The position numbers and the translations under genes were made by a program. The notes under the pieces were generated by a model. The model worked only from the letters and a program-made list of their open reading frames with translations, searched no databases and was not told the origin of the DNA. This document shows positions 8,831-17,826 of a DNA stretch of 64,000 nt, one piece after another. The stretch is taken from positions 1 through 64,000 of IMG/VR virus record IMGVR_UViG_3300032243_001145; one strand, written 5' to 3'. The first letter of the stretch is position 1. Every line of letters begins with the position of its first letter. The DNA is from a virus (taxonomy: Duplodnaviria > Caudoviricetes).

Positions 8831-9407
8831 GAATAAAATAAATTTAGACTCAAATATTTTTTATATAGAAAATTTTTTATCAAAAGAATCTCATTTACAG
8901 CTTTTAAATTTTTGTAATGAAGGAAACTTTATATTTGAAGATAAATACGTTAAGCAAAGAGGCATTAAATATATTGATAGACAAAATAATCAAGACTATA
9001 TAAATGCATATAAAGAGTTTGTATCTAGTATAGAAAAAATGTTTAATAATGATAAACATTCATTAGAATATCTATCTCATGTTCAAACATACAAAATGTA
9101 TAATAATGAACTAAATTATAATAAAAGATGGGCAATGGGCCCACATTTTGATGACGAAAGACCAGACATTTTTGATGGAGAACCAATAGTTTATTTTGGA
9201 TTAGTTTATTATATAAATGATAATTATGATGGCGGAGAAATAACTTATCCTAATCAAAATATAAAATTTAAACCAAAAGCAAATACATTAGTTGTGCACC
9301 CAGGATCAAATAATTACGTGCATCAAGTTGAACAAATATTTAATTGTGATAGGTTTCAAATATCAGCATTTATTAAAAATAATAAAATAAAATCTTTATT
9401 ATTTTAA
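8829..9407 (+). CDS. 2OG-Fe(II) oxygenase (prolyl-4-hydroxylase-like)
   Basis: HFD...YINDNYDGGE...H...R. Confidence 0.9.
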   Translation: MNKINLDSNIFYIENFLSKESHLQLLNFCNEGNFIFEDKYVKQRGIKYIDRQNNQDYINAYKEFVSSIEKMFNNDKHSLEYLSHVQTYKMYNNELNYNKRWAMGPHFDDERPDIFDGEPIVYFGLVYYINDNYDGGEITYPNQNIKFKPKANTLVVHPGSNNYVHQVEQIFNCDRFQISAFIKNNKIKSLLF

Positions 9408-9973
9408 GCAACACCTTGTTTTTTTAATAAAACTAAATTATATATTGCAAGAGCTTCCTCAATGTCTGGGTGATTTTTAACGGACCCCTTCACAGAATCA
9501 TAACTATCATCAATTATGCTGGTTGGTTCAAATATTTCAGTTGCTTCTGGAAAAACTATTTCAAAATCTTCTTCGAGAGGATTTAAATAAATTTTGTGAC
9601 AAAGCATTGATATTATTCTTTGTGGATGTAAAACCAAATCTTCAAAGTCAATTACAATAACATTTTTATGAGAATTAATTTTATCATAAAATAAAATATA
9701 GTCTTTAATACTTTTTGCTATTTTTTGATTTAAAATTTGATCTGGTTCACCAATCCATTGATCTTTGTCATAAATTCCATTTTTTGAATCAAATATCATT
9801 TTTGATGAAAGAGCATCAACTGGATGTCTTGCTATTGTTATCCATTTAAATCTTTCATCTAATACTTCATTTAAATCATGTGACTCAGCGACCTTATGCA
9901 GCTTAACTTTATTTGCTAAATTTTCTATTAAAAAATGATTTCCGTGTCTTGGGAATGTAACTATTTTATTCAT
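9404..9973 (-). CDS. sulfotransferase-family protein
   Basis: PRHGNHFL (5'-PSB loop), ARHPVDALSS (3'-PB), FEDLVLHP. Confidence 0.75.
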   Translation of the reverse strand: MNKIVTFPRHGNHFLIENLANKVKLHKVAESHDLNEVLDERFKWITIARHPVDALSSKMIFDSKNGIYDKDQWIGEPDQILNQKIAKSIKDYILFYDKINSHKNVIVIDFEDLVLHPQRIISMLCHKIYLNPLEEDFEIVFPEATEIFEPTSIIDDSYDSVKGSVKNHPDIEEALAIYNLVLLKKQGVA

Positions 9974-10040: not shown

Positions 10041-10724
10041 ATGGATTCAGTTTATTTTTTACATATAAATAAAACAGCTGGCAGGTTTTTCTATGACTAT
10101 GTCATTAAGCCTTCTAGGTTTGCAATTGACTTTGATTATAAATTTATAATACCAAACAAAAGTAACTCTTGGACACATTGGGGATGGACGGATTTAATTC
10201 AAGACTCAACATATGTTATGTCATCGTTAAGAGATCCTGTTGAAGTTGCAATTAGCTATTATTTACATAGTTTTACAGAAGATCATGATGAGGAGCTAGA
10301 TAGTCTAAGGACTGTTTTGAAATCAAAACATACATTTTTTTATGCAATGGAACGAATAACTAACATACAATCAAAAAATTTTATGACTTGGAAAGATGAT
10401 AAAGTTTCTGTCGGCACTTCAATGCCAATAAATAAAAATTTAGTATTTGAAAGACTTGACAGAGTAAATTTATTATTAAATTCAAAAGATATAAATATAA
10501 AAACTGCAAAAAACATACAAGAAAAAATATTTACAGATTTAAATATTAAATCTGATGCAACAGTTCCAGAAAAAGATACTAATTCATTTAGAACAAAAGG
10601 TTTTAATGAGTTTTACAATTCATTTACTCAAGGACAGCTTGACAGAATAGCTGATTTAAATTCTATTGATATGGAGCTTTATGAAAAAGCAAAAACATTA
10701 TTTTGGAAACCAAAACAAAATTAA
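10041..10724 (+). CDS. sulfotransferase (Sulfotransfer_2-like)
   Basis: FLHINKTAG, LRDPVEVAISYY, NSIDMELYE. Confidence 0.8.
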   Translation: MDSVYFLHINKTAGRFFYDYVIKPSRFAIDFDYKFIIPNKSNSWTHWGWTDLIQDSTYVMSSLRDPVEVAISYYLHSFTEDHDEELDSLRTVLKSKHTFFYAMERITNIQSKNFMTWKDDKVSVGTSMPINKNLVFERLDRVNLLLNSKDINIKTAKNIQEKIFTDLNIKSDATVPEKDTNSFRTKGFNEFYNSFTQGQLDRIADLNSIDMELYEKAKTLFWKPKQN

Positions 10725-11026: not shown

Positions 11027-11230
11027 TTATTTTCTTCCCCATTTAACTTTATTCCAACCACGCTCATGGAAATAATAAAGGATTGTCTTTGTTAGTACTT
11101 CAAACCCTGCAATTGATGCAGCAGTTATTGCTTTATGTGTTATAAAATATGACAAAACAAAAGTGTCTGCCGTTCCAATGATACGCCAAGTGATTGCTTT
11201 TAGTGCTGATCTTTGTTTAGTTACATTCAT
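11027..11230 (-). CDS. DUF2061 small membrane protein
   Basis: RSALKAITWR...YYFHERGW. Confidence 0.85.
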   Translation of the reverse strand: MNVTKQRSALKAITWRIIGTADTFVLSYFITHKAITAASIAGFEVLTKTILYYFHERGWNKVKWGRK

Positions 11231-11298
11231 CTTTATCCTTAAAATCAAACATTAATGCTACAAACCTATCTTCTGCATCTGCAATACCCTGAGAACTT

Positions 11299-12060
11299 TT
11301 ATATACCCAATTCTTTACGCTTTTCAGTAGCTGAAATAGCATGAATGGTTGCCCCCAAATCTACTTGTTCAATTTTATATCCTACGTCACGACCATATAC
11401 AATGTTGGTAATATTAGGCAATCTTAATACCAATGCTCCATCCATAAATTCATCTTTAGCAATATATTCTTTTACCTGATCAAAGGTCAACGGATCTTTT
11501 TCGCTAGTCTTATATGTATTTCTTACGCCAAGTAAAACTTGCTTTGTTCTTTTTCCCGCCTCTTCATATAGTGCGTGATGTCCTTCATGCCAAGGTTGGT
11601 ATCTACCAAGCATTAATGTTGTTGGAGCCGACCAATCATGAAGTTTGAAGTGCTGAATAATTACAGTAGCTTTTTGATCTTGATCTAGTTTATGATCTTC
11701 AAAAGTTGCATCATACTGTGTTGGGCGTTCAAACATTTTATTTGTATCTTCAAAACGACCCTCTTCAATTGTATCCATAAATATAAAAATATCTGGCTTA
11801 CCAAATGCTGAACGTGTAGCTTCTGTTGGGCAAACAAAATCTACAATAACTGGTGCCACACCTTGCTTAGAAATAAGACGTGCCATCTCGCCCATACGAC
11901 GTGCCTGTTCTAGTCTATCTTCTGGTGTGAATCCAAGATCAGAGTTTACTGTTGCACGTACCTCATCAGCATTTAAATGAATTGCATTAATTCTTTCTTT
12001 TAAAGCTTTTGCTAACTGAGTTTTGCCTGAACCTGGGAGTCCAATTATTTGAATAATCAT
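11299..12060 (-). CDS. cysC: adenylyl-sulfate (APS) kinase fused to a HxGH nucleotidyltransferase domain
   Basis: GLPGSGKT, LNADEVR, DLGFTPEDRLEQARR; C-domain GRYQPWHEGH...YGRD...ISATEKR. Confidence 0.85.
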   Translation of the reverse strand: MIIQIIGLPGSGKTQLAKALKERINAIHLNADEVRATVNSDLGFTPEDRLEQARRMGEMARLISKQGVAPVIVDFVCPTEATRSAFGKPDIFIFMDTIEEGRFEDTNKMFERPTQYDATFEDHKLDQDQKATVIIQHFKLHDWSAPTTLMLGRYQPWHEGHHALYEEAGKRTKQVLLGVRNTYKTSEKDPLTFDQVKEYIAKDEFMDGALVLRLPNITNIVYGRDVGYKIEQVDLGATIHAISATEKRKELGI

Positions 12061-12803
12061 TTAGAAATCTCTCTTACTAGTTGATGAATAGCGTTATCGC
12101 TATCATCGTTATATGTTGATGAAAACATAAGTTCAAATTCTTTAAACTTATTTAATTCTTTTAGCACTGTTTCCTGTGTGCCATAAATACAATTATTAAT
12201 TTGTCTTTCATTTTTTAGATCATTAAATATTTTTTCGGCTTCTGCGTAGCTGTCTTTAATAATTAAAAATATTTTTAATATTTTTTTACTATTAATTATA
12301 TCAAATCTATTTGAATTATTCAAGTGATCTTCTAATAAATAAATAATACCATCTCCATAATTTAATGAATTTATTATTGTTTCGTCAGATCCTCCGCTAA
12401 AAAATATTTCAGGTAAATCTTTATTAATTTCTTTTAATTTAGCTACAAACTGTCCAGATTTTTGTTTTCTTTCTTGTATAGAAGTTATATTTTCAAATAA
12501 ATCTTGATCTTCATCGCTAGTCCCAGATACAATATTAATTAAAAGTTTATCTTTTACTATTTGATTAAATGCTTTTATCATCATTGATAAATAAGCTGGT
12601 GTCAATGCATATGGCCTTATTGCAACCATATATTTTGTTTTTTGTCCTTCAAACAAAGCATTTGCTGCTTTTATAAAATAATCTTCTTCGTCTGAATGAA
12701 ATGTTAGTAAAACTGATTCGTATCCAACATCATCTATAGATTTAATAAAAGAATGAAGTTCCATTGGAGTGAAATTATACTTCAACATCCAATGAAACTT
12801 CAT
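12057..12803 (-). CDS. luciferase-like flavin monooxygenase (SsuD-like), paralog 2
   Basis: GYESVLL...KYMVAIRPYALTP...LLINIVSG. Confidence 0.8.
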   Translation of the reverse strand: MKFHWMLKYNFTPMELHSFIKSIDDVGYESVLLTFHSDEEDYFIKAANALFEGQKTKYMVAIRPYALTPAYLSMMIKAFNQIVKDKLLINIVSGTSDEDQDLFENITSIQERKQKSGQFVAKLKEINKDLPEIFFSGGSDETIINSLNYGDGIIYLLEDHLNNSNRFDIINSKKILKIFLIIKDSYAEAEKIFNDLKNERQINNCIYGTQETVLKELNKFKEFELMFSSTYNDDSDNAIHQLVREISK

Positions 12804-13746: not shown

Positions 13747-13890
13747 TTATTTTGAGCCTTTTGCAGTTTGGCCCCTATAGCCCGTCTTTTTTTTATTCAT
13801 CGATCCAGGTTTCTTGTATCCAGAGCCGTTTGGAGTTGCTGCAATTCTTTGCTCTAAAGCCTTTTTAATCTTATCATGGTGCTTTCCCAT
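13747..13890 (-). CDS. 47-aa basic microprotein (MGKHHDKIKK...)
   Basis: TAATG-coupled. Confidence 0.65.
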   Translation of the reverse strand: MGKHHDKIKKALEQRIAATPNGSGYKKPGSMNKKKTGYRGQTAKGSK

Positions 13891-14108
13891 TATTTAACCT
13901 TATTTCCAAACTTTGCCCATACTCTTTCGTGTAAAAAGTATCCTATCATTTCGCATAAAGTATAAATTATTGCAAATGATCCAGCATATTCCCAATGTGC
14001 TTCTCCAGTAATGGCTTTTTCAAAAAAATATACCATTGTTCCAACAAAGCTAATATGTACTGCTGGCCATGTTAATGATTTATATAAACTTTTTCTATTT
14101 GATTCCAT
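13890..14108 (-). CDS. DUF2061-like membrane protein
   Basis: KSLYKSLTW...YFLHERVW. Confidence 0.75.
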   Translation of the reverse strand: MESNRKSLYKSLTWPAVHISFVGTMVYFFEKAITGEAHWEYAGSFAIIYTLCEMIGYFLHERVWAKFGNKVK

Positions 14109-14892
14109 TTTGTTCCCCCATTATTTCTTTAATTAAATAGTGTATAGATGATACGTTATTATCTTCTGGGTGAGGGCTGATTAATAAATCAGTAGCACCT
14201 AAATCCTTTAGATTTTTTATTTGATCCTTTACACTATTTTTATTACCATATATTGTCCATCTGTCGGACCCTAAACTTTTAGATAACATGTTTTTTATAT
14301 CTGATTCTGAATCATTTATTATTATACTAAATGATAACATTTGTTTGGTATTTTTTATAAAATTAGGATCTTCATACGACTGCTTATGCATGTTTAGCAT
14401 AGCAAGGTGTGTGGCATTATATTTCTCAGCCATAAGTCTTGTTTCATTGGAATGACCACCCATAACTATTTCTGAAACTGTATCACCCGCAAGAGAATTG
14501 AACTTTAAAATCCAATTATCCGTGTAACTTAATCTTTTTTCTGGGGTATCTAGATCTTTTCCAAACCAGATTATGTCTTGTACCGACGTCTCTTCTTCAT
14601 GCAAGTCGCCAGATACAATATTAAGCATAAGTCTATTTGGGCATATGTTATAAAAAGCCTTAGATATCATTGCACAATATTCTGGGCTTATTGCATATGT
14701 CCTGATTGCTGGCATGTATTTAAATTTATGATTTGTATCTAGAACTCTGGCAGCCTTAATCCAATTATCTTCTATTTTTGAATGATATACAAGCAATATT
14801 GATTCATATCCAAATTTATCTGCTATTTCTGAAATATACTTAAGGCGATCAAGACTTGTGTCTCCGCCTCTTTCCATCCAATGAAACTTCAT
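14095..14892 (-). CDS. luciferase-like flavin monooxygenase (SsuD-like), paralog 1
   Basis: MKFHWM, GYESILL, KYMPAIRTYAISP, NRLMLNIVSGD. Confidence 0.8.
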   Translation of the reverse strand: MKFHWMERGGDTSLDRLKYISEIADKFGYESILLVYHSKIEDNWIKAARVLDTNHKFKYMPAIRTYAISPEYCAMISKAFYNICPNRLMLNIVSGDLHEEETSVQDIIWFGKDLDTPEKRLSYTDNWILKFNSLAGDTVSEIVMGGHSNETRLMAEKYNATHLAMLNMHKQSYEDPNFIKNTKQMLSFSIIINDSESDIKNMLSKSLGSDRWTIYGNKNSVKDQIKNLKDLGATDLLISPHPEDNNVSSIHYLIKEIMGEQNGIK

Positions 14893-14958: not shown

Positions 14959-15975
14959 TTACTTCTTAAGTGCAACCTTAGCTTTTGGATTCTTTGCGTT
15001 CCACTTCTTTGCAAGAGCGTTATACTCTGCGATGTAAGTGGCCTTATCAAGATCTGCTGCTGCTGTTGCGGTTATTGTTGCTGCTTTTGCATCGGCAAGA
15101 GCTTTATCTGCTGCAACCTTGTCTGCTGCACGTCCAGCTTTTTCTGCTGCAAGTGCTGCATTAGCAACTGCTAGTTCTGAATTCTTTGCTGCAAGTTCGC
15201 CTGCAAGATCACGAACTGCTACTGTTGCAACTACAGAACCTACTGGTGCTGCAAGTCCTGTTACGGCTGTTGCTACTGTTGCGTATGCTGTAACTACAAC
15301 TGAACCTGAAGCAGGAAGTGTAACTGTCTGCTCCTTAGTTCCAAGTGTTGCTACTGCTGTATCTGTTGTAAGCGCTGTTGCAGTTGCTGCACCATTTGAG
15401 CTTACTAAAGTATTAATTGTTGCTCCACCCTTTAAGTTTCCAAATACATCGTATCCTGATACCTTAAGTGTTGCAATTGTTCCTGCTGCTCCAGATGCTG
15501 GTGCGGTTAGGGTAATTGAGTTCAAAGCACCTGCGGTACCTTGTACGTAGTATGTAGTTGTGTTTCCACCAACAGTAACTAATACTGTTCCTACTGTAGT
15601 AGTTTTAGTATATACATAAAACTCTGCTGTTGTTCCTGTTCCAACATTAATTGTTAGAGCAGATGATCCGCTTGAAGCGGTTACTGGTGCACTTGCTGTT
15701 GCAAGCGCTGGAACAATAGTTGCATTTGTTGCAACTGCTGATACTGCTGTTCCTGTATCTACAGAAGTAATAGCAATCTTTAATGCATCTGCTGCATCTA
15801 TGCTATTGTCTGCTGGTACTGGAAGTGCTACAGGAGCTGTTGCTACTGTGCCACCCGTTGCTGCAGAACCCGCAACTGTTAGAGTTGTGGTTGCCGCATT
15901 TGCTGCTGGCGATACTAGCATTGTGCTAGTCAGGGCTGCAGCGATGATTAGCGATACTTTCTTAAATGAGTTCAT
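14959..15975 (-). CDS. exported Ala/Thr-rich surface (S-layer/Ig-like) protein
   Basis: Signal peptide ending ANA, beta-rich core with DVFGN, Ala/Lys helical tail. Confidence 0.75.
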   Translation of the reverse strand: MNSFKKVSLIIAAALTSTMLVSPAANAATTTLTVAGSAATGGTVATAPVALPVPADNSIDAADALKIAITSVDTGTAVSAVATNATIVPALATASAPVTASSGSSALTINVGTGTTAEFYVYTKTTTVGTVLVTVGGNTTTYYVQGTAGALNSITLTAPASGAAGTIATLKVSGYDVFGNLKGGATINTLVSSNGAATATALTTDTAVATLGTKEQTVTLPASGSVVVTAYATVATAVTGLAAPVGSVVATVAVRDLAGELAAKNSELAVANAALAAEKAGRAADKVAADKALADAKAATITATAAADLDKATYIAEYNALAKKWNAKNPKAKVALKK

Positions 15976-16517: not shown

Positions 16518-16727
16518 TTACTCTCCTTTTAATTCATCCGCAGCTTTATTAAATTTATTCATAAATGTTTGGATCACCCAAACTGCGGTTTCCCCTGCAT
16601 TGACAGACATTGCTTTTGAAGCTTCTTCAGTTCTGTCCTCCATAGCAAGGGCGTTGTACCATTTCTGGTACAACTCCTCACCAATCTCTTTAATAATTTC
16701 TTCAAGTACAGTTAACTTGTTATTCAT
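16518..16727 (-). CDS. hypothetical protein
   Basis: 69 aa in operon. Confidence 0.75.
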   Translation of the reverse strand: MNNKLTVLEEIIKEIGEELYQKWYNALAMEDRTEEASKAMSVNAGETAVWVIQTFMNKFNKAADELKGE

Positions 16728-17826
16728 TAAGTCTTGCTAACTGTGTTGCTTTAAGCGTAGCAAGTTTATCTGCTGCTATTTTAACTGCTGCATCATATTC
16801 TGCTTGTGCTTTTGCAATTTGTGCATTAACATCTGCTTGAAGCGCTGCTTTTGCAGCAGCCAATTCAGCAGGTGTAGGGCCAGCAGGTGTTACATTGTAT
16901 GCAAGCGCTGCATTGATGTTAATAAGCTTTGTAAATGTTCCCTGTCTTCCAATTGTAGAAGATGCTGTTGAACGCAAGGCTGTAAGCAATTGATCATATG
17001 TGTATGCAGGTTTTGCTGACTTTAGTTTAATCCACTGTGCTCCTGCAACTTGAATTGCAGCAGATGAACCTGAAATATTTTTTGAAATATTACCTGGACC
17101 AGCAATTGTAAAAAATCCTGGCGCAAAAAAATCAAGTTTTGCAGTGTCGTTGTTACTTGATGTTGAAATTTCATTTTGTTGATCTACGTAACCAACTGAA
17201 ATTGATTCGTCTAAACATGCTGGCCAATCAATACGTGCATAGTCACGTCCATTTCCTGAAGGAAAAAATGTTGGAATTCCAATAGCAATCAAATCTTTAA
17301 TAGACTGTTGTGTTGTTGGTGTTTTTGGACAATAATCAGTTCCTGCTACAAGATTATGCATTCCCTGAGACATGGTAACCGCTTGAATATTATACTTTAA
17401 AGCATTAGATTTGACCCAATTTAAAGCATTGTAAACAGATGCTTCTCCTGCATTTTGACGCAATCCAGTAGACGTATTTCCAATAATTTTAATAAATACA
17501 ACATTAACATTTGGATTGGTTGCTAAAAATACTGAGGTCATAAATGTTCCGTGATCAAAACCATTTTGTGTAATAAGGTTGCTTGGCATTGATGCCGCAC
17601 CCTTACCTTCCATAAATGACTGACCATTGGGGCATGTTGTCCATTCTAGAATACAAACTTCTTGAACAATTTTACCCTGAAATGCTGGAAGAGATGTGTC
17701 AATTGCTGTATCTAAAATAGCAATTGCTGGTGTAGAATCTGTACGGTTTTTTAATCCCGCTGCATGAGCGGTTGTAGGTACTGCTAGTGTGATTGCGATT
17801 AACGCAGCTATTAGTTTTTTATTCAT
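16720..17826 (-). CDS. secreted S8 (subtilisin-like) serine protease
   Basis: Signal peptide; AILDTAID, HGT, SGN, SGSSAA triad motifs. Confidence 0.85.
   Translation of the reverse strand: MNKKLIAALIAITLAVPTTAHAAGLKNRTDSTPAIAILDTAIDTSLPAFQGKIVQEVCILEWTTCPNGQSFMEGKGAASMPSNLITQNGFDHGTFMTSVFLATNPNVNVVFIKIIGNTSTGLRQNAGEASVYNALNWVKSNALKYNIQAVTMSQGMHNLVAGTDYCPKTPTTQQSIKDLIAIGIPTFFPSGNGRDYARIDWPACLDESISVGYVDQQNEISTSSNNDTAKLDFFAPGFFTIAGPGNISKNISGSSAAIQVAGAQWIKLKSAKPAYTYDQLLTALRSTASSTIGRQGTFTKLININAALAYNVTPAGPTPAELAAAKAALQADVNAQIAKAQAEYDAAVKIAADKLATLKATQLARLNE

Follow-up and report, generated by a model that had tools for sequence, protein, structure and literature searches.

A compact phage fusion protein that probably makes PAPS, with a candidate third kind of ATP sulfurylase as its small domain

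We describe a gene for a 253-residue protein (P0001) in a 64,000-nucleotide stretch of viral DNA (the window), which joins an APS-kinase-like domain to a minimal nucleotidyltransferase domain and which probably encodes a compact bifunctional PAPS synthase. The proposal that the fusion protein makes PAPS follows from gene-neighbourhood and gene-replacement patterns, which suggest that the smaller domain is an ATP sulfurylase of a type not recognised before. With somewhat less confidence, we also consider it reasonably likely that this C-terminal domain of about 115 residues represents an unrecognised third class of ATP sulfurylase, derived from NMN adenylyltransferases (NMNATs) rather than from Sat or CysD, and that together with a short APS kinase it supplies PAPS in many phages, SAR11, SAR86, Saccharibacteria and numerous Alphaproteobacteria. 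A preliminary description had already proposed one small sulfate-to-PAPS protein. This remains the best-supported reading on account of domain fusions, operon position and gene displacement, but the reasoning from Sat by which it had been reached did not hold.

The fusion gene occupies positions 11299–12060 on the minus strand (the strand was missing from the preliminary description), with its ATG at 12060 and its end at 11299; its start shares 4 bases with the stop of the gene upstream. The open reading frame call and the translation confirm that the frame is real; the source of the protein is a lake phage. The motifs previously named in it are all present and far exceed what chance would produce, namely the P-loop GLPGSGKT (residues 7–14) and DLGFTPEDR (41–49) in the N-terminal half and GRYQPWHEGH (152–161), YGRD (222–225) and ISATEKR (242–248) in the C-terminal half, and the QxRN motif is, as described, absent from the 253 residues. 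The motif residues are near-invariant across the family alignment, in which K13, D32, R35, F44 and R49 of the N-terminal half and G152, R153, Q155, P156, H158, G160, H161, R180, G223, R224, G227, S243 and R248 of the C-terminal half are invariant or nearly so. The Asp of GRD varies (YGRGVGY in SAR11, YGRTVGY in Saccharibacteria), so the true family signature is YGRxVGY. The PHROG family phrog_10255 covers the fusion over its full length (1.3e-62), and its homologues in public data form over 7,000 clusters when grouped at 90% identity; the scan of genome collections for homologues was built on 12 sequences. The island gave no megablast match to cultured phages.

Residues 1–140 (11641–12060, minus strand) form a trimmed P-loop kinase of the APS-kinase family, in agreement with the earlier assignment. 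The Pfam APS_kinase model PF01583 matches above its gathering score (1.4e-15, 58.1 bits against a cut-off of 21.1) over residues 2–85 only, and the NCBIfam equivalog TIGR00455 reaches 60.2 bits, under its cut-off of 138.7, over residues 2–84 only. The structural comparison that had been proposed as a check was informative for this half alone: an AlphaFold2 model of the fusion (mean pLDDT 95.8, pTM 0.87), searched whole with Foldseek, was matched in its kinase half only, with APS kinases as best matches (2ofw and 4fxp, E about 3e-9), and the C-domain searched by itself gave no match at E ≤ 0.001. The P-loop and the LGF...DR..N.RR motif residues of canonical CysC are present, and K13, D32, R35, F44, R49, R55, P78 and R83 are invariant in the fusion family and canonical CysC alike, while about 18 residues of the lid are deleted relative to canonical CysC. 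By its sequence, the fusion kinase has one degenerate catalytic motif: DGDN reads N-A-D-E, with Asn30 at the first Asp, the position of D87 in human PAPSS1, where the substitution D87A abolishes APS-kinase activity (PMC8528679).

The C-domain (residues 141–253; 11302–11640, minus strand; about 113–115 aa), hereafter the mini-transferase, is a minimal nucleotidyltransferase of the HIGH type and a candidate ATP sulfurylase, with the motifs GRxQPxHxGH, VR, NP, PN, YGRxVGY and ISATxxR. Enzymes of the HIGH family cannot be told apart by their fold. The closest relatives of the domain at the sequence level are the archaeal/NadM NMN adenylyltransferases and not Sat. A profile of the C-domain alone matched 2qjt (4.8e-11) and 1f9a (3.4e-10), both NadM/archaeal NMNATs, over profile positions 7–75, and no Sat catalytic domain was among its PDB matches at E ≤ 10. 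The Sat model PF01747 matched neither the whole protein at E ≤ 0.1 nor the C-domain at E ≤ 10, and when the C-domain profile was compared with 10 genuine Sat domains by hhalign, the alignment was limited to 16 columns around HxGH, with a probability of 5%. The idea that the C-domain is a trimmed Sat, to which the motif comparison of the preliminary description pointed, is contradicted by these results. Sat domains have an invariant F-(H/Q)-T-R-N-x-x-H-x-x-H where the mini-transferase family has G-R-x-Q-P-x-H-x-G-H, the two His alone corresponding, and the invariant V-G-R-D-H-x-G loop of Sat faces a Y-G-R-x-V-G-Y that has invariant Gly and Arg, a varying Asp and no His. Because no similarity to Sat extends beyond HxGH, the equations of YGRD with VGRD and of ISAT with ISGT describe a shared order and fold-level features, with homology undemonstrated.

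The kinship with NMNATs is likewise partial. The GRxQPFHxGH motif and the profile similarity of archaeal/NadM NMNATs are both found in the C-domain, whose best NCBIfam matches are NMNAT models, namely PRK01153 (23.9 bits against a cut-off of 127) and TIGR01527 (17.4 against 181), restricted to residues 149–192 of the fusion, with no full-length match above the cut-offs. Family positions 75–88 correspond to residues 72–110 of 1f9a, so that the segment leading from beta3 to ISxTxxR has lost about 25 residues, and with them what we take to be the nicotinamide-binding part. The NMNAT motif IGSAQ is replaced by VRDT, and NMNATs lack two Arg that are invariant in the mini-transferase, R180 of VRxT and R224 of YGRxVGY. 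An NMN or cytidylyl transferase had been offered earlier as the alternative identity of the domain, and this is correct as to ancestry (NMNAT-like) but probably not as to function.

Domain fusions and gene order in cells connect the mini-transferase with sulfate activation. It is fused to a complete canonical APS kinase in P0159 (PF01583 5.7e-63, profile positions 2–151 of 152) and again in P0258 (PF01583 7.2e-45), both domain orders occur among its fusions to APS kinases, and in SAR11 the mini-transferase and the kinase are separate overlapping genes; the contigs of P0159, P0258, P0128 and P0127 (1.3–5.6 kb) provide almost no informative context. Two Saccharibacteria genomes (G184 and G247) carry, in this order, a CysQ-like phosphatase (8.5e-53), a canonical CysC (208–210 bits), a standalone mini-transferase and glycosyltransferases. 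In a third genome (G137) the fusion lies directly beside a sulfotransferase gene (9.7e-14), and in a fourth (G160) it lies between genes for a TauE/SafE transporter and a sulfotransferase-like protein. Judged from gene order and sequence, the mini-transferase holds in these operons the place expected for an ATP sulfurylase. Among the 16 Saccharibacteria with a gene of the APS-kinase family, Sat is fused or adjacent to it in 6, the mini-transferase in 5 and both in none, an exclusivity that rests on small numbers (one-sided p about 0.06, calculated by hand); CysD is absent from all 5 genomes with the mini-transferase.

In the Pelagibacterales (121 genomes), the mini-transferase is found in 88, Sat in 4 and sulfotransferases in 82. 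Mini-transferase and sulfotransferase are only weakly associated there (64/24/18/15 genomes with both, the former only, the latter only and neither; odds ratio about 2.2). A canonical APS kinase in an open reading frame of CysN-CysC size is present in 8 of the 18 genomes that have a sulfotransferase without the mini-transferase; ten SAR11 genomes have a sulfotransferase without detectable APS kinase, and Sat and the mini-transferase occur together in 3. Sulfotransferases were found in all five carrier genomes tested as compared with 2 of 14 controls, and Sat in none of the five; a clear CysD/CysH pair was seen in Inquilinus only, the SAR11 genome having one weak PF01507 match. The genes that adjoin the mini-transferase in Alphaproteobacteria and SAR11 are unrelated to sulfur, and in SAR11 they belong to C1 and organic-acid metabolism. 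When the surroundings of 80 cellular copies were searched with tblastn for cys genes, DUF2061 and sulfotransferases, adjacent ones turned up at 3 loci only, and 2 of these loci appear to be phage contigs that were binned with MAGs; unbiased clustering of the genes near cellular copies recovered only SAR11 housekeeping genes.

The constant neighbour of the fusion in phages is a small membrane protein. Directly downstream of the fusion lies a gene for a two-helix DUF2061 protein (11027–11248, minus strand; PF09834 1e-20) with a likely start at ATG 11230, giving 67 aa, and a DUF2061 gene is found in this place in 75 of 80 related viral loci. A second DUF2061 gene (13890–14108, minus strand; PF09834 9.5e-9) recurs in 31 of the 80. 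Upstream, the stop of a gene for a short luciferase-like/SsuD-like protein of 248 aa (12057–12803, minus strand) overlaps the start of the fusion; its match to the alkanesulfonate monooxygenase model TIGR03565 (2.6e-13) covers the N-terminal third only and is far below the cut-off, and the gene is present in 13/80 related loci. Another short SsuD-like gene (14095–14892, minus strand; 265 aa; TIGR03565 4.4e-14, below cut-off) overlaps the second DUF2061 gene and is present in 15/80. Outside phages, DUF2061 is found in the Salegentibacter operon cysQ-DUF2061-cysC-cysD-cysN, in a rhizobial nodH-nodPQ locus and, at 12 of the 30 DUF2061 loci from Bacteroidia, no more than 1.5 kb from cysC/D/N/Q.

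Potential users of PAPS are also encoded nearby. A small sulfotransferase-like protein of 189 aa (9404–9973, minus strand), which a whole-genome search recovered again, matches PF00685 (8e-5, 22.6 bits against a cut-off of 22) and PF13469 (2.7e-4) and is likely a PAPS user. A tentative second sulfotransferase of 227 aa (10041–10724, plus strand) has motif-level support only: it has no Pfam match, its best PDB match is a heparan-sulfate 6-O-sulfotransferase (E = 0.37), it weakly matches a sulfotransferase-like open reading frame of Saccharibacteria (E = 0.028), and statistical confirmation as a sulfotransferase failed. Neither Sat nor CysD was found in the fusion-bearing phage, where these sulfotransferase-like genes are present. 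Among 19 related phage records, sulfotransferase matches, weak at best, occur in 7 and CysH in none, so that a PAPS sink is often not found in phages. In the cultured phages Sano and DLP_6, the homologue adjoins NADAR or 2OG-oxygenase genes (NADAR lies upstream of it in Sano), and neither DUF2061 nor a sulfotransferase was annotated or detected among the genes examined beside it.

If the fusion is a PAPS synthase, MgATP would be held by HxGH (H158 and H161), R153 and ISATxxR (S243, T245 and R248) of the C-domain, which would transfer AMP onto sulfate to give APS and pyrophosphate, with R180 and R224 as candidate sulfate binders. By homology, the N-domain would then phosphorylate the 3'-OH of APS to PAPS by means of K13, D32, R35, F44 and R49. 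As in other fusions of ATP sulfurylase with APS kinase, joining the two domains would drive the unfavourable first step towards its products, and the PAPS could pass to sulfotransferases encoded by the host or by the phage (9404–9973 and possibly others). The downstream DUF2061 protein would be part of the same module, with sulfate supply or membrane localisation as guesses at its role.

The same pair of domains could instead make a different PAPS-like donor, the transferase nucleotidylating another small anion or phospho-compound (e.g., selenate, or a phosphoramidate or phosphonate precursor) and the kinase adding the 3'-phosphate. Such an activity would fit a C-domain that lacks the sulfate-binding motifs of Sat, a kinase that is divergent in its trimmed lid, its Asn30 and its score under the equivalog cut-off, and distant phage homologues in contexts not related to sulfur. 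There may also be a precedent, since the APS-kinase homolog Cj1415 of Campylobacter jejuni, reportedly studied by Taylor and Raushel in 2018, is said to phosphorylate cytidine diphosphoramidate. We nevertheless regard another donor as unlikely, because the same mini-transferase pairs with fully canonical CysC, alternates across genomes with Sat and with kinases of CysNC size, and has CysQ-like phosphatases and sulfotransferases in its operons, while its DUF2061 partner is found in cysDN-cysC operons. Quite improbable, in our judgement, is a NadR-like enzyme of NAD salvage that combines a nucleoside kinase with an NMN/NaMN adenylyltransferase, perhaps restoring NAD in infection. The GRxQPxHxGH signature shared with NadM/archaeal NMNATs, the profile matches to 2qjt and 1f9a (5e-11 to 3e-10), the NMNAT models as best NCBIfam matches and the NADAR gene in Sano all speak for it, but the alignment covers only the first 70 or so residues, the NMNAT cut-off is far off, about 25 residues are deleted before ISxTxxR and GSAQ has become VRDT. 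Moreover, the partner kinase is of the APS-kinase family, is sometimes a canonical CysC and keeps the residues invariant in CysC, and CysQ, sulfotransferases and TauE accompany the mini-transferase in operons.

The direction of the first reaction raises a further alternative, in which the C-domain works mainly in reverse (APS + PPi to ATP + sulfate, as in sulfite oxidation) or as a nucleotide-binding regulator of the kinase, with APS coming from elsewhere. ATP sulfurylase chemistry is reversible, dissimilatory Sat runs in reverse according to PMC3779200, and the SAR11 carriers offer three genomes with both Sat and the mini-transferase and a setting of C1 and organic-acid metabolism. However, searches found no other source of APS in carriers such as Saccharibacteria and SAR86, the forward direction suits fusion to an APS-consuming kinase, and the catalytic HIGH-family residues are all invariant, which leaves this reading with only a slim chance. 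An analogue of CoA synthase, with a phosphopantetheine adenylyltransferase and the 3'-OH kinase acting as dephospho-CoA kinase, has practically none: the match to PPAT sequences is weak (E = 0.005 or worse), the kinase half is of the APS-kinase family and not CoaE, and we rejected it because canonical CoaD (171–194 bits) and CoaE are already encoded by the carriers from SAR11, SAR86 and Inquilinus.

To our knowledge, only two kinds of ATP sulfurylase exist, Sat and CysDN, and descent of the C-domain from NMNAT-like enzymes rather than from Sat would make the mini-transferase a third. The searchable literature yielded no described enzyme of this type and no third ATP sulfurylase; such proteins at present carry no annotation other than "adenylyl-sulfate kinase" or "cytidyltransferase". 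If the PAPS synthase reading is true, sulfur-pathway reconstructions would change for SAR11, SAR86, Saccharibacteria and many phages, and a PAPS source would be explained for organisms that have sulfotransferases but no known sulfate-activating enzyme. Freshwater LD12, relatives of SAR11, have been described as lacking a complete assimilatory sulfate-reduction pathway; if the reading holds, the most abundant heterotrophs of the ocean would nonetheless be able to activate sulfate for use in sulfation. The "cysC" auxiliary gene common in freshwater viruses would be redefined as a self-contained PAPS module, and a PAPS synthase of 253 residues could serve as a biocatalyst for enzymatic sulfation.

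Among known systems, human PAPSS1 (1x6v, 630 aa) and the Sat/APS kinase of Aquifex aeolicus (2gks, 546 aa) likewise combine an APS-kinase-family domain and a HIGH-type (HxGH) adenylyltransferase in one polypeptide; both domain orders occur in nature among PAPS synthases and Sat-CysC fusions, and PAPS is the proposed common product. The phage fusion has about 40–46% of the size of these two enzymes, and differs in its transferase of about 113 aa without the PUA-like N-domain or any Sat-family sequence signal and in the shortened kinase lid. Compared with Sat (PF01747; Thermus thermophilus 1v47), the C-domain is about half the size of the catalytic domain, shows profile similarity limited to HxGH, and lacks Q/HxRN, PxxGxxKxGD, YAGPREA and the His of GRDH. 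Compared with the NMNATs of M. jannaschii (1f9a), Francisella (NadM, 2qjt) and M. thermautotrophicus (1ej2), it is about 50 residues shorter, lacking the stretch before ISxTxxR and the C-terminal helical part, has VRDT for GSAQ and adds the invariant YGRxVGY, and its partners and context are APS kinase, CysQ and sulfotransferases. CysD has a PP-loop ATP pyrophosphatase fold driven by the GTPase CysN, whereas in the phage module a single small HIGH-fold domain takes this place, with no GTPase. The Salegentibacter operon nevertheless follows the same logic as the phage locus, with DUF2061, an APS kinase and a sulfate-activating enzyme together and sulfotransferases nearby.

The fusion is encoded on the minus strand from 12060 to 11299 (253 aa), its ATG sharing four bases with the stop codon of the gene upstream, and belongs to a complete phage genome of 115,319 bp with direct terminal repeats; the window also encodes a DnaE-type polymerase, DnaB, DnaG, a RecA/UvsX-like recombinase, terminase, tail proteins and eight tRNAs. 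The fusion noted in the preliminary description is confirmed, and all of the motifs it listed are present, namely GLPGSGKT (residues 7–14), DLGFTPEDR (41–49), GRYQPWHEGH (152–161), YGRD (222–225) and ISATEKR (242–248). Pfam assigns APS_kinase to residues 2–85 (1.4e-15) and only a sub-threshold CTP_transf_like match to residues 150–188. NCBIfam gives an apsK match of 60 bits, below the cut-off of 138.7, and weak NMNAT model matches in the C-terminal half, and PHROGs a full-length match to phrog_10255, annotated "kinase" (1.3e-62). AlphaFold2 yields a confident two-domain model from a 54-sequence alignment (pLDDT 95.8, pTM 0.87).

The N-domain (residues 1–140) has the APS kinases 2ofw and 4fxp as its top structural matches (E about 3e-9). 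In alignment with canonical CysC proteins it retains K13, D32, R35, F44, R49, R55, P78 and R83, lacks about 18 lid residues, and carries Asn30 at the position of the first Asp of DGDN, which speaks against kinase activity because D87A or D89A abolishes the APS-kinase activity of human PAPSS1 (PMC8528679). Judged by this alignment, the kinase is degenerate in its lid and in one of its catalytic motifs.

Clustered at 90% identity, the family comprises more than 7,000 groups; at E ≤ 0.001 it has 4,491 representatives. Pfam scans of variant architectures reveal both domain orders (P0163, P0267), the mini-transferase fused to a complete canonical APS kinase in the variants P0159 (PF01583 5.7e-63 over 2–151 of 152) and P0258 (7.2e-45), and the kinase domain joined to the DUF4118 membrane domain. 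Four metagenomic proteins (P0128, P0257, P0216, P0197) carry DUF4118, at either end, joined to a short APS-kinase-like domain that may or may not be accompanied by the mini-transferase. Homologs of 37–43% identity, annotated "kinase", occur in cultured phages of Xylella, Xanthomonas and Stenotrophomonas, and the family is widespread in cells, including many Alphaproteobacteria, Pelagibacteraceae, SAR86, Saccharibacteria and Melainabacteria. The SAR11 form consists of two overlapping genes (135 and 124 aa; 90%-identity clusters of 12,599 and 11,617 members), named in databases "adenylyl-sulfate kinase" and "cytidyltransferase" or "phosphopantetheine adenylyltransferase". The "cellular" matches closest to the window protein lie in an Acidimicrobiaceae MAG (L094, 73% identity) and a Bacteroidia MAG (L095, 66%); both show the phage-like order of fusion then DUF2061, the latter also with SsuD-like genes, and probably represent phage sequence that ended up in the MAG bins.

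In 75 of 80 related viral loci (60–94% identity) the gene immediately downstream of the fusion encodes DUF2061. The SsuD-like genes recur in 13–15 of these loci, the 2OG oxygenase in 10, and the sulfotransferases of the window in 1–5. The conserved core is therefore the fusion plus DUF2061, and the remaining "sulfation island" of the window is accessory. In cells, DUF2061 is linked to sulfate activation: in a Salegentibacter operon cysQ, DUF2061, cysC, cysD, cysN it overlaps its neighbours, with a sulfotransferase nearby; 12 of 30 DUF2061 loci in a sample of 251 Bacteroidia genomes have cysC/D/N/Q within 1.5 kb; and in a Mesorhizobium nod locus it occurs together with nodH, nodP and nodQ (bioRxiv 10.1101/2022.04.26.489235). 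The DUF4118 fusions echo this association and suggest that the enzyme works at the membrane.

Two short luciferase-like, SsuD-like proteins are encoded on the minus strand, at 12057–12803 (248 aa, overlapping the fusion start codon) and 14095–14892 (265 aa, overlapping a second DUF2061 gene); both match only the N-terminal third of the alkanesulfonate monooxygenase SsuD, and such proteins are found in only about 15 of the 80 loci. Just upstream of the island, on the same strand, are genes for a 338-aa Ala/Thr/Val-rich protein (14959–15975) and a subtilase (16720–17826; PF00082 7.9e-14), both recurring in some related phages. Whole-genome search of the phage found no Sat or CysD/CysH, and four weak Sulfotransfer_1-like matches; three of these lie outside the window (83158–83682, 104906–105241 and 105672–106061) at E 1e-4 to 4e-4, below the cut-off. 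Weak sulfotransferase matches occur in 7 of 19 related phage records, and a PAPS_reduct-family gene in none of the 19.

The decisive comparative evidence is the gene context in carrier cells. Sulfotransferases are present in all five carrier genomes (SAR11, two Saccharibacteria, SAR86, Inquilinus) versus 2 of 14 controls; Sat is found in none of the five, and a clear CysD/CysH pair in Inquilinus only, the SAR11 genome giving one weak PF01507 match (4e-8). In a class sample of 301 Saccharibacteria genomes, 5 have the mini-transferase and 16 an APS-kinase-family gene (15 by PF01583, plus G002, whose trimmed kinase scores below the search threshold). Among these 16, Sat is fused or adjacent to the kinase in 6, the mini-transferase in 5 and both in none (chance of zero overlap about 0.06, calculated by hand on small numbers); CysD is absent from all five mini-transferase genomes. 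The positional equivalence of the mini-transferase and Sat in Saccharibacteria is exact. Two genomes (G184, G247) have the order CysQ-like phosphatase, canonical CysC (208–210 bits), standalone mini-transferase, glycosyltransferases; the fusion of G137 is immediately adjoined by a sulfotransferase, and that of G160 has as neighbours a TauE/SafE transporter, a pyruvate-kinase barrel and a sulfotransferase-like gene. Of the PAPS-pathway enzymes, the carrier operons lack only ATP sulfurylase, and the mini-transferase occupies the place held elsewhere by Sat or CysDN, fused to an APS-consuming enzyme.

Three of the five Saccharibacteria carriers have a pyruvate kinase or pyruvate-kinase-barrel gene beside or close to the kinase/mini-transferase gene (L178:4932–6332, L177:3986–5065, L176:7617–8156); this neighbour might serve in ATP regeneration or be functionally unconnected. 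Four other Saccharibacteria (G110, G113, G135, G245) encode Sat and canonical APS kinase in single frames of 908–959 aa; these far exceed known Sat-CysC fusions in length and must carry further domains.

In the order sample of Pelagibacterales, the mini-transferase, adjoined by the short kinase, occurs in 88 of 121 genomes (87 of 120 without G687, flagged unpublished), Sat in 4 and sulfotransferases in 82; the association of mini-transferase and sulfotransferase is weak (64/24/18/15 genomes with both, the former only, the latter only and neither). Among the 18 genomes that have a sulfotransferase and lack the mini-transferase, 8 encode a canonical APS kinase within a 613–639-aa ORF, a length that would fit a CysN-CysC fusion.

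Taken together, the comparative genomics makes it probable that the protein is, as proposed, a small PAPS synthase. In the most economical mechanism, the C-domain would convert ATP and sulfate to APS, with R180 and R224 as putative sulfate ligands, the N-domain, by homology, would convert APS to PAPS, and PAPS would serve sulfotransferases. Against sulfation we count the settings of two distant phage homologs: in Xylella phage Sano (L001:6553–6996) a NADAR-domain gene (6e-26) lies directly upstream of the fusion homolog, and in Ralstonia phage phiRSL1 (L003:5647–6585) the genes after a kinase-only homolog encode a TET-associated glycosyltransferase and a pair of sugar nucleotidyltransferases. 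The neighbourhoods of family genes in Alphaproteobacteria and SAR11 are likewise unrelated to sulfur. Around the pair in one SAR11 single cell (L166:7808–12979), the setting is conserved and non-sulfur, with dimethylglycine-dehydrogenase-like, MTHFR-like, enoyl-CoA hydratase, CoA-binding and flavodoxin-like genes.

It is unlikely that the fusion makes another PAPS-like donor, and improbable that it serves as an NMNAT in NAD salvage; a reverse or regulatory role seems slightly less probable still. An analogue of CoA synthase was removed, with hardly any likelihood left to it, because the SAR11, SAR86 and Inquilinus carriers possess canonical CoaD and CoaE.

Freshwater viromics has counted "CysC-family" genes of viruses among the auxiliary genes for sulfate assimilation and has noted that LD12, acI and CL500-11 hosts are without the complete pathway (bioRxiv 10.1101/655167; PMC8066274); these papers overlook the fused domain. 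The literature searched held no description of an NMNAT-like or cytidylyltransferase-like ATP sulfurylase.

The kinship of the C-domain (residues 141–253) with Sat, the other part of the proposal, is unsupported. The Sat motifs given there are correct, as (Q/H)TRNxxHxxH, VGRDHxG and ISG(T/S)xxR are seen in genuine Sat domains; the sulfate-binding motifs of Sat are absent from the C-domain, its profile brought up no Sat catalytic domain at a threshold as loose as E ≤ 10, and hhalign against ten genuine Sat domains, drawn from the genomes searched here, aligned 16 columns only, round HxGH (probability 5%). Modelled alone, it folds confidently as a minimal HIGH-type nucleotidyltransferase (pLDDT 93.6), with invariant G152, R153, Q155, P156, H158, G160, H161, R180, P190, P215, G223, R224, S243, T245 and R248; its nearest ESM Atlas neighbours are viral "cytidyltransferase" clusters of 116–131 aa. 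The domain-only profile matches NadM 2qjt (4.8e-11) and archaeal NMNAT 1f9a (3.4e-10) over the first ~70 residues, and the C-domain is therefore NMNAT-derived rather than a trimmed Sat. If the function holds, it would represent a new class of ATP sulfurylase within a very small PAPS synthase. Compared with NMNAT, the domain is short of about 25 residues ahead of the ISxTxxR segment, has VRDT with an invariant Arg in place of IGSAQ, and has a new invariant YGRxVGY, so that, measured against the NMNAT scaffold, a large internal piece has been lost and two invariant arginines have been added.
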